A DNA stretch of 64,000 bases from the IMG/VR virus record IMGVR_UViG_3300037722_000380, positions 27,379 to 91,378 of that record, one strand, 5' to 3'. Below are positions 59,846 through 64,000 of the stretch, one piece after another; the first letter of the stretch is position 1, and the number at the start of each line of letters is the position of its first letter. The stretch is from a virus. The notes under the pieces were generated by a model that ran no database searches, was not told the DNA's origin, and saw only the letters and a list, made by a program, of their open reading frames with translations. The translations under genes and the position numbers were made by a program.

Positions 59846-60163
59846 CTAGCGCCAAAACCGCGCCTTGGGATAGAAGCGGCGGATTTGCCCCTTAGCGATT
59901 TCCCTGTCCCGCGCCCATATCACGCCGTCAATGCGTCCGCAATCCGCCGCGTACCAATAGAGCGGCCCGCCTATACCGAAGTATGTTCCCTGAGAATCGT
60001 ATCCGCCCGAGTCGATACGCACGCGGCGCAACGTCAAGCGGCCCGCGAAGTCTGTGTCCGCGCCGTGATAGCTATGTCGCCCAAATGGTGCGCCGCGTCG
60101 CCAATCGCCCATATAGCCTTGCGGCGCACGCGTCTTATAGCTCGGTCGCGTTCCGTCCGCCAT
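59846..60163 (-). CDS. Conserved phage hypothetical protein
   Basis: GAPFGR..LRRVRIDSGGYDSQGTYFGIGGPLYW. Confidence 0.65.
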   Translation of the reverse strand: MADGTRPSYKTRAPQGYMGDWRRGAPFGRHSYHGADTDFAGRLTLRRVRIDSGGYDSQGTYFGIGGPLYWYAADCGRIDGVIWARDREIAKGQIRRFYPKARFWR

Positions 60164-60191
60164 GATTCCGACTCCTCAATTTTCAAACGAC

Positions 60192-60221
60192 CTTAGCTCA
60201 AATTTTCGGTTAATGTCAATT
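60192..60221 (-). promoter_or_regulatory. Sigma70-type early promoter
   Basis: TTGACA-N18-TAAGGT. Confidence 0.5.
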
Positions 60222-60243
60222 CAATTTCTCGCGGTTACTATCC

Positions 60244-60402
60244 ATTAAGGTTAACAAACTTTGAGCAAAAATTAACCGTTAATCCAAGTTAAGGTTAACA
60301 AATTTCGAGCAAAAATTAACCATTAGCGCCCATTAAGGTTAACAAATTTTGAGCGAAAATTAACCATTAGCGCCCATTAAGACTTATTAACAGCCATTAA
60401 CC
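60244..60402. repeat. Three ~44-bp AT-rich tandem repeats with TTAAC half-sites
   Basis: TTAAGGTTAACAAAYTTYGAGCRAAAATTAACCRTTA at ~60245, 60289, 60333; then TTAA at 60377, 60387, 60397. Confidence 0.8.
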
Positions 60403-60570
60403 TTCCTCAATCTCAAATGGGGATACCCATGATTCCGCGCCAGTATCCGAATCTCGGATTAGGCTTAGGTTGCCGTTGCGCTCGATTTCCTCGCCTTCCC
60501 TAGGTAAGGCGCTACCCTCGCACCAATACCATACGGGGCGGGGAAGGCGACGGCGGGCCGGTCTAGCCAT
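60397..60570 (-). CDS. Small hypothetical protein (57 aa, not in ORF track)
   Basis: Hand translation MARPARRRLPRPVWYWCEG.. Confidence 0.4.
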   Translation of the reverse strand: MARPARRRLPRPVWYWCEGSALPREGEEIERNGNLSLIRDSDTGAESWVSPFEIEEG

Positions 60571-60764
60571 GGCGTGGTTCCCCGCGATTTAGCGCGCCCG
60601 CGATCATCCCCGCCGTATGCCTTGAAAAGCAATAAGCGAGGATATGCGGCGGAGTATGGGCATTATCTGCTACGTAGAAAGGCGGACTTGGTAGGTGCGA
60701 AAAAGAGTGTAACGCGGACGATGATTCCTCTACCGTATAGCGAACATGTTGCGGCGCGATTTGC

Positions 60765-60956
60765 TTAGCCATTGTCCAATTCCTCATAACGTTGAATTCG
60801 CTCAATCGACCATCCCGCCAAGTCCGCGAGAACGTTCCGCGCGTCCGCTTTGGACATTCCGCCCATAACGGCCGCGCCCATATCCGACATTCGCAAGGTA
60901 CTCTTGGCGATTCGGATTCTGTGTCCGTCGAAAGGTTCGCCTTGCCGCTTAGCCAT
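60765..60956 (-). CDS. Small early protein
   Basis: GGGAGTC RBS. Confidence 0.55.
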   Translation of the reverse strand: MAKRQGEPFDGHRIRIAKSTLRMSDMGAAVMGGMSKADARNVLADLAGWSIERIQRYEELDNG

Positions 60957-60970
60957 TGTCCGACTCCCTG

Positions 60971-61606
60971 CTAGGCTCTTGCGCCGGACTCTTCGAACTC
61001 ATATTCGTTCGCGCGAATGGACTCGTCAACCGATTCGTCCGAATTGAGATATTCATATTCGGATTCCAGGCGACGATAAATCCAATGCATAAACTCGCGC
61101 AACGTTTGGGCGATAGCGTCCGCCGCGTCCGCGTAAGCGAGATAGCCGTTCGCCCCGTCAACGGCAATTTGCGTGCAGAATTCATGGCAGTAGTGGCCGC
61201 TATGCTTGACTCGCGCTTCAAGCTTGTAGAAATGCGGCCGTTGAATGTCGCGCAAGGCTTCCGCAATTCGATGGAGTCGTGTATCATCCGGCGCATAATC
61301 GCGGACGGATTTGACGGAACCTTTCTTGTAGCTATAAGTTCCCTCAAAGCAAGCCCCGTCACCCTGCGAATAGAAACCGCTAAACATTATAGACGGTTTC
61401 ATGCGACTCGTGCCGTCAATAAGCTTGACGGGAGTCTGTCGCAAATCAATTCCCAAAAGGTCCGCGATAGTCGCCACGTCGTCGAAAACGAATTCGTACC
61501 ATTCATAATCGAGATTGCCTTGACGGAACCAATCTCGCGCGGCTTCCTTCGCCGAGTCCGACAATTCGTCGAATTGATAGACCGTGGTTTCCTGAACCCT
61601 AGGCAT
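60971..61606 (-). CDS. Conserved early phage protein (YQFDELSD..FSGFYSQGDGA family)
   Basis: Start re-set to MPRVQE with AGGAGTC RBS. Confidence 0.65.
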   Translation of the reverse strand: MPRVQETTVYQFDELSDSAKEAARDWFRQGNLDYEWYEFVFDDVATIADLLGIDLRQTPVKLIDGTSRMKPSIMFSGFYSQGDGACFEGTYSYKKGSVKSVRDYAPDDTRLHRIAEALRDIQRPHFYKLEARVKHSGHYCHEFCTQIAVDGANGYLAYADAADAIAQTLREFMHWIYRRLESEYEYLNSDESVDESIRANEYEFEESGARA

Positions 61607-61943
61607 TTTCCGACTCCTCAATTTCAAGCATGGTCGAATCGTCAAGCTTGCCGTATTCCAGATAATAAACGCAATCGTCGCATATGTCCAAATGAATTAT
61701 GCGACCGTCAAGCCATGCGTGCGCCGGGGAACGGTTCCCGCCTTCCGGCCGAGCGCAGCATTCGCATCGACTCCAGGAAAAGAAAGGCTCGCCCGCAATC
61801 TCATACTCCGGGCAATCCATATCGGGATGATCCGCGAGTCCGCAATCCTCGCATCCGGGACAGGGACCGCTTGACGGATAATCGAGTCCCGCCATACCGT
61901 TCCGGAACGCGGCGACATACTCGTTATATTCCTCGCGCGTCAT
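61599..61943 (-). CDS. Cys-rich early protein
   Basis: CPGCEDC, CECC, CDDC; GGGAGTC RBS. Confidence 0.6.
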   Translation of the reverse strand: MTREEYNEYVAAFRNGMAGLDYPSSGPCPGCEDCGLADHPDMDCPEYEIAGEPFFSWSRCECCARPEGGNRSPAHAWLDGRIIHLDICDDCVYYLEYGKLDDSTMLEIEESENA

Positions 61944-62320: not shown

Positions 62321-62335
62321 AGCCTGACTCCCTAG

Positions 62336-62746
62336 CTAATAGTCCAAGCCGCAAGGCTCGCAATACGGCCGCCCCGTTTCGCAATCGGTACTGAGACTCC
62401 CGCCGCACTCGCTACACGTATTCGGAAAGGCGTATTCCGATTGCACAAAATCCACGTCCGCCGGAGTCAACTCGGATATGGAAACGAAACCCTCGTTCGA
62501 CTCGCGAATCAGCATGGCAACGGTATCCGAGTCAATCTCCGGGAACGCGGCGCGATCCTCGCTTGTCACGTCAAGCAACGCGACGAATTCGCCATGCGAC
62601 TCCATATCCGCAAGAAGTTCCTCGCTACCGTCGCAAGCCTCATCCCAAAAGTAGGGCGCATAGGCGGACTCGCCTTCGAACTTGCCCGGATCGCAGATAG
62701 TGAAATTGCGAATCGTGTATTCCGAAAAAATTTCCTCGCGCGTCAT
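62336..62746 (-). CDS. Acidic early protein with C-terminal Zn ribbon
   Basis: PGKFEGE; CSECG..CEPC; AGGAGTC RBS. Confidence 0.6.
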   Translation of the reverse strand: MTREEIFSEYTIRNFTICDPGKFEGESAYAPYFWDEACDGSEELLADMESHGEFVALLDVTSEDRAAFPEIDSDTVAMLIRESNEGFVSISELTPADVDFVQSEYAFPNTCSECGGSLSTDCETGRPYCEPCGLDY

Positions 62747-62796
62747 AGTTCGACTCCTCGATTGCAGTTTCGTCCTACTCCAAATCCGCCGCGCCG

Positions 62797-63240
62797 TCAA
62801 CCTTCCTGTTTAGTCGGAAGTCGCAGTTTAGCCGAACGGAAAAACGTTTCATCCGATTCCGCAATTTCGTCCGCGTCAACCTTCCCCTTTAGCAGGGATT
62901 CCACATATTGCAAGGCTTCCGCCATAACCTGAGACGGCGGATTCTTTTGCTTGACTCCGGCAGTGAGGATATTCGCCAAGTCCCGCAATTGATAGGCATT
63001 GGCAAACGCCACAGGAGTCCCGATAAATCCGGCCGCAATAGAAGCTTGACGGATACCCTCACCGTGCCAAGGCTCTTGCGTGACGTTGAACAAGTCCAAT
63101 CCCGTTGTCTCATCATGGGACAGATAGACTCGCACACTTCCGGCCCAACTAGCGGCACAAGTCCGAAGTCCCGTTTGCTTGTGTCCGAGTCGCGTCGCTT
63201 CGCCGCGTGCGCCTTTAAGCGTTCCGTAAAAGTGTGCCAT
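62797..63240 (-). CDS. Conserved early phage protein
   Basis: MAHFYGTLKGARGEATRLG..AASWAGSVRV; AGGAGTC RBS. Confidence 0.65.
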   Translation of the reverse strand: MAHFYGTLKGARGEATRLGHKQTGLRTCAASWAGSVRVYLSHDETTGLDLFNVTQEPWHGEGIRQASIAAGFIGTPVAFANAYQLRDLANILTAGVKQKNPPSQVMAEALQYVESLLKGKVDADEIAESDETFFRSAKLRLPTKQEG

Positions 63241-63251
63241 GGTTCGACTCC

Positions 63252-63428
63252 TTATCTACCGATGCGTTTCATAGCGGCTTGGATTTCCTCGCGTGACGGA
63301 TCATGCCACGTCAAGTCAAGGTCGAATCTAATCGGCTTCCTCTTGCGCGAGACACAAAACGAGAAACAGAATATGCCGATTCGGAAAAAGCGAATCCCGC
63401 CGACTCGCCGCGTCGAAAGCCTAATCAT
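63252..63428 (-). CDS. Small early protein (58 aa, not in ORF track)
   Basis: MIRLSTRRVGGIRFFRIGIFCFSFCVSRK..; ATGA overlap. Confidence 0.5.
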   Translation of the reverse strand: MIRLSTRRVGGIRFFRIGIFCFSFCVSRKRKPIRFDLDLTWHDPSREEIQAAMKRIGR

Positions 63429-63700
63429 AGTCGGGTTCCTCGCATAAAGGAAATCAAGCGCAATTCATAGTCCGCCTGGGTCTTAGGCGCGTCCGGCATT
63501 GTGGACTCTTTCGACTCCACAATATAGCGCACCAAAGCGGAGATAACCGCTTCCGCCCGGTCGTCGTTTGCCGTGACGAATCCGCTTGCGTTCAAGTGAC
63601 AACGTGCCGCATAGAACGCCGCGTCAATGGCGTCCCGAGTCGACTCTTCCGACTCTTCATAGAAACCGTGCCAGTAGGATTCTTGCCGAGTAAGTGACAT
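63425..63700 (-). CDS. Early hypothetical protein
   Basis: Start re-set to MSLTRQ with AGGAGTC RBS. Confidence 0.55.
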   Translation of the reverse strand: MSLTRQESYWHGFYEESEESTRDAIDAAFYAARCHLNASGFVTANDDRAEAVISALVRYIVESKESTMPDAPKTQADYELRLISFMRGTRL

Positions 63701-63714
63701 ATTCCGACTCCTAC

Positions 63715-63951
63715 CTATGCCGCTTGTCTGAGGAAACCGGCCGGGACAGTGTGCGACGATTCCGTTTCCAGTACCAAGCAAAGAATCGCCATGCGCTCTA
63801 GCGCATCTAGGCGTAACCATTCCGCCCCGTTTAGTTCCCCCAAGCGCGCCATAACGGCGTTCAAGGCTTGCGACCGTTCCGTATCGTCTCCGTCACGCTC
63901 TAGCATAAGCAATGCGGGGATAGATGCAGACATTAATTCGGCGTATGTCAC
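63715..63951 (-). CDS. Early hypothetical protein
   Basis: GTG start with GGGAGTC RBS. Confidence 0.5.
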   Translation of the reverse strand: MTYAELMSASIPALLMLERDGDDTERSQALNAVMARLGELNGAEWLRLDALERMAILCLVLETESSHTVPAGFLRQAA

Positions 63952-64000
63952 GGGACGACTCCCTTACCCATACACAATTTCGCCAAGCGCAACATACTGC

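Follow-up and report, generated by a model that had tools for sequence, protein, structure and literature searches.

A leftward operon dense in GANTC sites

The stretch of DNA analyzed here, referred to as the window, spans 64,000 nt of the IMG/VR virus record IMGVR_UViG_3300037722_000380 and corresponds to positions 27379-91378 of an uncultured virus contig of 93,022 bp. Near its right-hand end, the window enters an operon of small genes in which the five-base word GANTC is concentrated into an island. In Alphaproteobacteria, methylation of GANTC together with its reader GcrA constitutes a cell-cycle device. An earlier note on this DNA had counted 63 GANTC and 5 GATC sites by hand between window positions 60150 and 64000, and both counts proved exact; its figure of 6 GANTC for the tape-measure gene (1164-3899) was likewise recovered, and 16 sites were found in 56800-59400, where about 15 had been reported. 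Given a background of 3.28 GANTC/kb, calculated from the sequence outside both the island and the tRNA array described below, 12.6 sites were expected in 60150-64000 (Poisson P 5e-24).

The island extends past the end of the window. It runs from genome position 88250 (window 60873) to 92865 and continues over genome 1-2130, accumulating 115 GANTC sites in 6745 nt, that is, 17/kb or 5.2 times the density of the rest of the genome. The window part (60873-64000) holds 58 sites in 3.1 kb, at 16-20/kb as compared with 3.3/kb elsewhere, and the part beyond the window (genome 91379-92865 and 1-2130) covers ~3.6 kb. The first 126 nt of the contig (genome 1-126) recur at 92866-92991, indicating that the two contig ends join inside the island, while the 31 nt at the very end differ. 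Two explanations are available, a circle that closes within the island and has a variant end, or missing sequence at this point. CheckV estimated the completeness of the contig at 88%. At 99.96-100% identity, the same phage is also present in metagenomes of sediment and soil, and four other metagenome contigs of this near-identical kind therefore carry no information on conservation. Within the island, which is 82% coding, the sites are spaced in a random-like manner (mean gap 59 nt, coefficient of variation 0.87) and no phasing was found, including at 10-11 nt, which points to density, and not phase, as the property under selection.

The island maps onto a single leftward operon, in which ~21 small genes are tightly packed. 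Nine of them lie in the window on the minus strand (60765-63951) and were called by a scan for open reading frames and ribosome-binding sites, with the same gene calls in independent JGI contigs. Their coordinates are 60765-60956, 60971-61606, 61599-61943, 61955-62320, 62336-62746, 62797-63240, 63252-63428, 63425-63700 and 63715-63951, and the next minus-strand gene (63964-64320) extends off the window. Searches of the island genes against Pfam returned no family matches, and PHROG matches were confined to families 5162, 1915 and 5927, all of unknown function. No excess of promoters or terminators was found inside the block, which fits a single operon.

On the minus strand between 60962 and 63961, the ribosome-binding sites of these genes follow the pattern (G/A)GGAGTC(G)-N4-6-ATG, each with an embedded GANTC (starting at 60962, 61612, 61949, 62326, 62752, 63246, 63706 and 63957). 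GGAGTC precedes 18 of the 21 island genes as against 3 of 121 genes elsewhere, and within the island TC comes next after GGAG in 18 of 19 cases, the otherwise free spacer serving to complete a GANTC.

Site density falls off sharply at the operon's two control regions. At the promoter-distal edge, an AT-rich region (window 59580-60420) contains TTAAGGTTAA/GGTTAAC arrays, TTAACCAT and three tandem repeats of ~44 bp. A gene of 105 aa lies just outside the island (59846-60175, minus strand), with the ribosome-binding site GAGGAGTCGGAATC, which includes two GANTC (60164 and 60170), and its own promoter-like TTGACA. A matching array occupies the promoter-proximal edge, outside the window at genome 2400-2900, with TTAAGGTTAA/GGTTAAC and four canonical TTAA-N7-TTAA, out of five in the whole genome, within a gap of ~1.3 kb between divergent operons; several TTAACCAT are distributed over the two edges. 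The sole promoter-like site heading the operon is predicted at genome 1757-1728, or alternatively as TAGACT-N17-TAGAGT, and this candidate is followed or overlapped by three tandem GACTC. Upstream of the first gene, sites continue for ~400 nt into the promoter/operator region. The non-coding DNA upstream of the first island gene (genome 1860-2140) also displays three copies of CCTTTAGAATCAA, two direct and one inverted, each with a GANTC, and several iteron-like AACTTTCC(G) repeats; both kinds of repeat may be operators or an origin. Across the gap, the rightward operon of small genes has a normal GANTC density and no GGAGTC ribosome-binding sites, showing that the island is specific to its operon and not a general trait of early genes.

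The second GANTC cluster of the window (~15.7-19.75 kb) has a different origin. It corresponds to an array of 30 tRNA genes on the plus strand (15715-19747, predicted by ARAGORN) whose T-loops read GTTCGANTCC, and the GANTC clusters of two terminase relatives (G002 and L095) are a tRNA by-product as well. A T-loop artefact was discarded as the cause of the island, since ARAGORN placed tRNAs only at 15715-19747 and none in the island.

Selection for GANTC at the DNA level

Coding nulls were run on the 21 island genes (6279 nt), which contain 89 GANTC sites. Synonymous shuffling within genes yielded 55.8 +/- 4.4 sites (z 7.6), synonymous resampling with the codon usage of the rest of the genome 42.3 +/- 4.6 (z 10.2), and shuffling of codon order 31.5 +/- 5.0 (z 11.4); under none of the three did any shuffle reach 89. 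The excess therefore persists under nulls that preserve amino acids and codons, the control which the earlier note had proposed for its own claim. All three reading frames are enriched, with 42, 23 and 24 sites observed where 34.6, 9.3 and 12.0 were expected. Outside the island, GANTC is near neutral (218 sites versus 236-246), and among 25 palindromes compared it was the sole one with a strong positive deviation.

The imprint of the word reaches the protein sequence. Dipeptides of the form [DE]S occur 43 times in the island compared with 21.5 expected (z 5.2), and 42 of the 43 use TCN serine codons, while the reverse dipeptide S[DE] stays about at expectation (26 versus 21.4); elsewhere in the genome [DE]S shows no deviation from expectation and TCN tends to be avoided. 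The non-coding DNA of the block contributes a further 30 GANTC in 1232 nt. Once the ribosome-binding sites are removed, GAGTC and GACTC are about equally frequent on the sense strand (29 and 26), a balance expected of a double-stranded palindromic target and not predicted by an RNA motif. GASTC is more enriched (72 versus 9.8 expected) than GAWTC (46 versus 16.3), and the flanks favor C before and G after the site. Sites thus fall in wobble positions, in an oriented dipeptide, in Shine-Dalgarno spacers and in non-coding DNA, which substantiates selection for GANTC at the level of DNA; the best explanation is that selection has filled one early operon with GANTC up to the limit that its genes tolerate.

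Several other words behave in the opposite manner. GATC is avoided throughout the genome (182 coding sites versus 339-351, z -13.5 and -9.7), as is GGCC/GGNCC (z about -5), which suggests hosts with restriction systems that cut GATC and GGCC; CCGG and TCGA are over-represented genome-wide. In the island, codon nulls showed a depletion of GATC (11 versus 25-33), CAG/CTG (82 versus 121-125), CAGC/GCTG (10 versus 32-38) and CATC/GATG (27 versus 51-62), with GAGC/GCTC depleted too, and the loss of CAG words could possibly reflect avoidance of CAG-containing restriction sites in first-entering DNA. When restriction-site avoidance was tested for GANTC in the island, the deviation had the opposite sign (z +7.6 to +10.9). 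The suggestion that the sites confer protective methylation by overlapping restriction sites found no support, as no overlapping palindrome is enriched and TCGA amounts to 32 where ~40 are expected.

It is important to note that the block has a codon vocabulary of its own. Even without the codons that form sites, its L1 distance in codon usage is 4.49, compared with 1.9-3.6 for other blocks, and both GC content at third codon positions (GC3; 0.586 versus 0.522) and the observed/expected ratio of CpG (1.55 versus 1.23) are raised. GC3 climbs in steps, from 0.50 in the structural genes and 0.53-0.57 in the replication genes to 0.586 in the island, where GCG, GGC, CGC, CCG and TCG/TCC are favored. 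This gradient fits early genes tuned to the tRNAs of a GC-richer host before the 30 tRNAs of the phage are made. Since the nulls retain the block's own codons, this vocabulary does not explain the GANTC excess, and an explanation by composition, codon usage or horizontal transfer was ruled out by the three codon nulls.

A phage methyltransferase and islands in cultured relatives

A candidate writer of the marks is encoded in the window at 46883-47533 on the minus strand. A motif scan identified there an N6-adenine DNA methyltransferase of 216 aa and NPPY type, with motif I EPAAGRG and motif IV TNPPY. Pfam and NCBIfam searches of this protein gave no match, and profile searches of the contig with PF01555 (N6_N4_Mtase, the family of the beta-class enzymes CcrM and M.HinfI), PF02086 and PF05869 were equally negative; PF05063 also gave no match, but was silent in control genomes too and hence uninformative. 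The provisional result drawn from these family profiles, that the phage has no methylase, was overturned by the motif scan and by tblastn. Among isolated phages, the best tblastn matches were Sphingobium phage Lacusarx (40%), Erythrobacter phages XM05 and L02 and Mesorhizobium phage Cp1R7A-A1, followed by many Caulobacter phages, Rhizobium phage 16-3 and Sinorhizobium phage phi2LM21. Alphaproteobacterial phages dominate this list, although the family also occurs in phages of Vibrio, Listeria, Staphylococcus and Campylobacter.

BLASTP aligned the protein with the catalytic part of phi2LM21_p21 at 33% identity over 184 residues (E 9e-17), pairing EPAAGRG and TNPPY with EPAVGKG and TNPPY. The enzyme phi2LM21_p21 protects GANTC from HinfI and is described as a phage enzyme that converged on the specificity of CcrM, the host cell-cycle methyltransferase (PMC5537653). 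Motif I precedes motif IV in the enzyme of the present phage, which is therefore not a CcrM homologue. As judged from this homology, the 216-aa protein probably writes the GANTC marks. The link to alphaproteobacterial GANTC methylation that the earlier note had drawn is thus strengthened by an encoded homologue of a GANTC-specific phage enzyme (PMC5537653), while its assumption that host CcrM does the methylating found no support, the phage most likely carrying an enzyme of its own.

Four cultured Sphingomonadales phages that carry the methylase, namely Erythrobacter XM05 and L02, Citromicrobium RXM and Sphingobium Lacusarx, also possess GANTC islands, in every case in early or terminal-repeat blocks of small genes. 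In XM05, the island covers ~21 kb (76.7-97.9 kb) and 42 small same-strand genes, with 167 sites (7.9/kb versus 2.6); its coding excess is 72 versus 40.5 +/- 4.0 (z 7.9) and affects every frame. TTGAC(C)GAATC promoters number 25 in this block, and in many of them another GAATC stands right after the -10 element. Erythrobacter vB_EliS-L02 has its island in the last 18 kb (132-150 kb), with at least 12 of the 28 TTGAC(N)GANTC found genome-wide, and Citromicrobium RXM shows an island of YGAKTCK-type sites in its first 8 kb. In Lacusarx, the island occupies the last 10.5 kb (119.5-130.1 kb), described by its authors as the terminal repeat (PMC5648845), and comprises 8 promoters of the TTGACGAATC type, most of which have another GANTC some six bases further along.

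In these relatives, the context of the sites recalls the preferences of GcrA. The Caulobacter protein prefers YGAKTCK, with TGATTCG as its top word (PMC4647560), and it activates with sites from -35 to about +50 (PMC5887438). The excess is greatest in this preferred context in all four relatives, amounting in XM05 and Lacusarx to 7.2 and 6.2 times, respectively, compared with 1.1 and 1.4 times in other contexts; YGAKTCK accounts for 77% and 56% of the island sites in these two phages (binomial P 4e-31 and 3e-7). Such strength in YGAKTCK gives the alphaproteobacterial link a second footing (PMC4647560). The relatives use mostly GAATC/GATTC, the commonest word in XM05 and Lacusarx is TGATTCG, and the sites of the relatives match the top GcrA words TGATTCG, CGATTCG and CGAGTCG. 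Read on the other strand, their early TTGAC-GAATC promoters, which number in the dozens and are nearly identical to one another, are the optimal GcrA words TGATTCG and CGATTCG. In XM05 and Lacusarx, the two phages in which contexts were read, many sites stand in repeated promoters and abut the -35 element, and their positions fit the range from -35 to +50.

Gene content connects the present phage with the same group. Homologues of three of its genes, two in the island (211 aa and 121 aa) and one just beyond its edge (188 aa, window 56764-57330), are located inside the XM05 and Lacusarx islands and in the terminal repeat of CcrBL9. The occurrence of island-gene homologues in the Lacusarx and CcrBL9 terminal repeats (PMC5648845) lends indirect support to the proposal that the block is early and possibly first-entering DNA. 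A homologue of the A1-like 'DNA transfer protein' of 584 aa (24356-26110, minus strand; 36% identity and E 7e-103 to Lacusarx 53606-55048), whose gene adjoins the methylase gene in Lacusarx and CcrRogue, links the phage to the phiCbK/Lacusarx type, which has terminal repeats. The phage, Lacusarx and XM05 have tail genes, an SNF2 helicase and this transfer protein in common; together with the methylase matches, these shared genes indicate that the host is probably an alphaproteobacterium, perhaps of the Sphingomonadales. A search for a host clue through the endolysin in bacterial genomes found nothing.

Among 160 loci with a phrog_5162 homologue from IMG/VR and metagenomes, none exceeded 60% identity, and the best windows reached 25 sites/3 kb (IMG/VR) and 16/2 kb (metagenome) versus ~55/3 kb here. 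Four IMG/VR contigs with such a homologue are nearly free of GANTC (0, 1, 3 and 3 sites in 14.3, 20.6, 17.3 and 13.2 kb, respectively), a near-absence in unrelated phages that represents classical avoidance, the opposite of an island. Homologues of the 136-aa gene showed no island, and one of the contigs concerned encodes GcrA and is GANTC-depleted; for the neighboring 245-aa gene no relatives were found. Two terminase relatives, G001 and G002, stop short of the early region, and G003 has only mild clusters.

Several other genes of the phage deserve mention. A nucleotide-metabolism set (window 20142-24386, 37061-37564 and 45336-46121) comprises a MazZ-like dATP/dGTP diphosphohydrolase domain, a 2OG-Fe(II) oxygenase, a dCTP deaminase/dUTPase and ThyX; the nucleoside 2-deoxyribosyltransferase at 23069-23551 is supported by Pfam, and a 155-aa protein at 21414-21881 has no Pfam match. 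A generic class I S-adenosylmethionine methyltransferase lies at 34627-35571. The set hints at modified bases, although a Z-genome was discarded, as PurZ is absent despite the MazZ-like domain. The 30 tRNAs are accompanied by genes for tRNA repair (RNA ligase and polynucleotide kinase-phosphatase) and translation rescue (an RF-1-domain, ArfB-like protein and a PTH2-like peptidyl-tRNA hydrolase), located at 38479-41028, 20142-20630 and 51904-52323.

Interpretation and comparison with known systems

The reading we favor, with a probability of roughly 0.45, is that the island acts in cis as a tract of N6-methyladenine (m6A) read by the host GcrA/RNA polymerase system. The NPPY methyltransferase, a middle gene in the replication module, would probably methylate the island sites on progeny DNA, so that virion DNA would reach the next cell with the operon densely marked, regardless of the cell-cycle-limited CcrM of the host. 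The marks would most likely be read by the host complex of GcrA and sigma70 RNA polymerase; GcrA binds methylated GANTC at -35 to about +50 of a promoter and speeds open-complex formation, and the single incoming DNA copy could thereby gain immediate early transcription. The TTAA (CtrA-type) arrays on both flanks may couple the onset of infection with the cell cycle of the host. As for the sites in gene bodies, one possibility is local capture of GcrA-polymerase, and another is that they serve to tell methylated parental copies from newly replicated ones.

This reading draws on the selection for the sites, the homology of the methylase, the islands and GcrA-context promoters of the cultured relatives, and the three tandem GACTC at the candidate head promoter. 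The island itself offers a context signal in line with it, given that YGAKTCK makes up 38 of its 115 sites (33% versus 20% in the rest of the genome, P 7.5e-4) at 8.5 times the density elsewhere. A number of observations nevertheless weigh against it. Sites outside YGAKTCK are also enriched 4.3 times, and only 14 of the 63 sites in the window part are of this type, which means that a Caulobacter-type GcrA preference leaves most sites unexplained. GcrA is known to act only from -35 to about +50, while some 90 sites are found well inside genes, where no promoter is predicted. No GcrA is encoded by the phage. The specificity attributed to the methylase is extrapolated from 33% identity, and the host assignment, probably alphaproteobacterial and Sphingomonadales, comes from homology as well. 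Four phages with homologues of the methylase (CcrBL9, CcrRogue, Cp1R7A-A1 and phi2LM21) have no island, and the searches of IMG/VR, metagenomes and terminase relatives found no diverged relative in which the early block is retained. A further factor that responds to every GANTC alike seems to be involved, be it methylation density, a less selective reader or the methylase.

A broader and more tentative proposal concerns the group as a whole. The phage may belong to a Sphingomonadales-type siphophage lineage with 'epigenetic islands', in which a CcrM mimic of its own marks GANTC in early or terminal-repeat DNA for the GcrA-polymerase of the next host to read. If true, this would amount to a methyl mark acting across phage generations, by which early transcription is primed and timed. 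The design would be pushed furthest in the present phage, where it involves nearly every ribosome-binding site as well as protein sequence, and a second function of m6A in gene bodies would be implied.

Among the alternatives, the one that retains most ground, though we regard it as unlikely, holds that the island counts through its bulk of m6A or of methylase substrate and not as reader sites. The earlier note had suggested a sink or decoy and a timing device, both of which are possible. As a sink, the island would titrate host CcrM or the phage methylase and so upset the host cell cycle or postpone methylation at other places; as a shield, dense m6A would make the first-entering DNA a poor substrate for a host nuclease or sensor. 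An enrichment that is independent of context and position, with sites outside YGAKTCK raised and spacing random, fits a system in which any GANTC counts, and the block is probably early or first-entering DNA in which other words (GATC, CAGC/GCTG, CAG/CTG) are most strongly avoided. A sink acting in trans, however, would work genome-wide, yet the sites stop at the two control regions of the operon. No palindrome overlapping GANTC is enriched, and the sites of a HinfI-type enzyme would be avoided, not collected. We know of no nuclease blocked by GANTC methylation other than those of the HinfI type.

An RNA-level signal is still less probable. GANUC in early mRNA, including the GGAGUC ribosome-binding sites, would on this account be the target of a sequence-specific endoribonuclease or RNA-binding protein that silences or tunes early messages, in the way that RegB of phage T4 cleaves GGAG within early Shine-Dalgarno sequences. 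Since the island genes are all on the same strand, each DNA site is also an RNA site, and the Shine-Dalgarno signature is specific to the class (18/21 versus 3/121). This explanation is at odds with the parity of GAGTC and GACTC outside the ribosome-binding sites (29 versus 26), with sites that reach ~400 nt upstream of the first gene, with the XM05 and Lacusarx sites that abut the -35 element and are untranscribed, and with a DNA methylase of the matching family in the phage. Equally improbable is an array for a phage protein that would bind, nick or cut GANTC or GAGTC irrespective of methylation (in the manner of PleI, MlyI or Nt.BstNBI) and thereby coat, nick or later destroy the early region. 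The higher enrichment of GASTC, the preference for flanking C and G and the lack of known function of most island proteins speak for it; on the other side, none of the genes scanned was assigned to a nuclease or HNH family, GASTC and GAWTC are both enriched, as a GANTC reader predicts, and the relatives use mostly GAATC/GATTC. Finally, that the sites have no function, being created by donor composition or by chance from acidic serine-rich proteins and host-like codons, would accord with the distinct codon usage, GC3 and CpG of the block, but is rejected by nulls that keep its codons and amino acids (z 7.6-11), by the direction of the dipeptide bias, by the sites in Shine-Dalgarno spacers and non-coding DNA, and by the same island in independent cultured phages.

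Our literature search retrieved no paper describing a GANTC island or enrichment in phage early regions. What has been reported for phages is GANTC depletion in pelagiphages, and a survey of phage genomes found GcrA motifs not to be clustered (PMC9437464); the L02 and Lacusarx papers do not mention GANTC islands or promoters. To our knowledge, phages copy the methylase and sometimes GcrA, and nobody has shown what purpose the copies serve. An operon-wide island gives the phage methylase a concrete target, and, with the hosts of the four cultured phages at hand, the question is directly testable. More generally, selection on a five-base DNA word can reshape the codons, dipeptides and ribosome-binding sites of an entire operon, which is relevant to the reading of phage 'dark matter' genes and to motif-based host prediction.

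The closest cellular counterparts are the GcrA/CcrM-dependent sigma-70 promoters of Caulobacter and other Alphaproteobacteria (PMC3667746, PMC4647560, PMC5887438). They use the same five-base m6A site, and both the candidate head promoter and the XM05 and Lacusarx promoters carry GANTC between -35 and about +10. Cellular promoters have 1-2 sites, however, while the island spreads 115 over 6.7 kb of mostly coding DNA, with two thirds outside the context preferred by GcrA, and it is a phage element whose marks are probably made by a phage enzyme. The CcrM-mimic methyltransferases of phages, including PhiLM21_p027, phi2LM21_p21, phi3LM21_p21 and the Paracoccus prophage enzymes (PMC5537653), resemble the present one in being small NPPY enzymes unrelated to CcrM, encoded beside replication genes in phages of alphaproteobacterial type. 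The papers describe those enzymes without an island of target sites, phi2LM21 having 1.2 sites/kb, whereas the enzyme here is known from its sequence.

Clusters of Dam (GATC) sites with functions in cis are familiar from oriC and SeqA sequestration, the pac site of phage P1, Mu mom and the pap/agn43 switches, and P1 carries a Dam of its own. There, as in the island, a local excess of methylation sites couples a DNA transaction to methylation state. Those clusters have 3-11 sites in <300 bp of non-coding, often phased sequence, in contrast to a gene-filled tract of 6.7 kb with random spacing, so that the island is not a short, non-coding, phased cluster of the oriC or P1 pac kind.

Alphaproteobacterial phages have also been described with gaps containing CtrA boxes and with 'lytic deferment', in work that reported CtrA sites only and nothing of the kind for GcrA motifs (PMC9437464). 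The present phage likewise has divergent operons separated by an AT-rich gap of ~1.3 kb that is crowded with TTAA repeats, TTAA-N7-TTAA among them, and has a second array at the other edge of the island, although CtrA binding is here only putative. The early regions of T5 and of phiCbK-like phages and Lacusarx (PMC5648845), which are of the first-step-transfer or long-terminal-repeat type, are comparable in their many small genes of unknown function, in the homologues found in the Lacusarx and CcrBL9 terminal repeats, in the A1-like transfer protein and in an avoidance of restriction-type words stronger than in the rest of the genome. They differ in that no comparable motif enrichment has been described for T5 or phiCbK, and the CcrBL9 terminal repeat has no GANTC excess. 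Taken together, GANTC methylation read by GcrA and CcrM-mimic phage methylases are known, and what is new is an island that spans an operon, shapes its codons and recurs in cultured phages.

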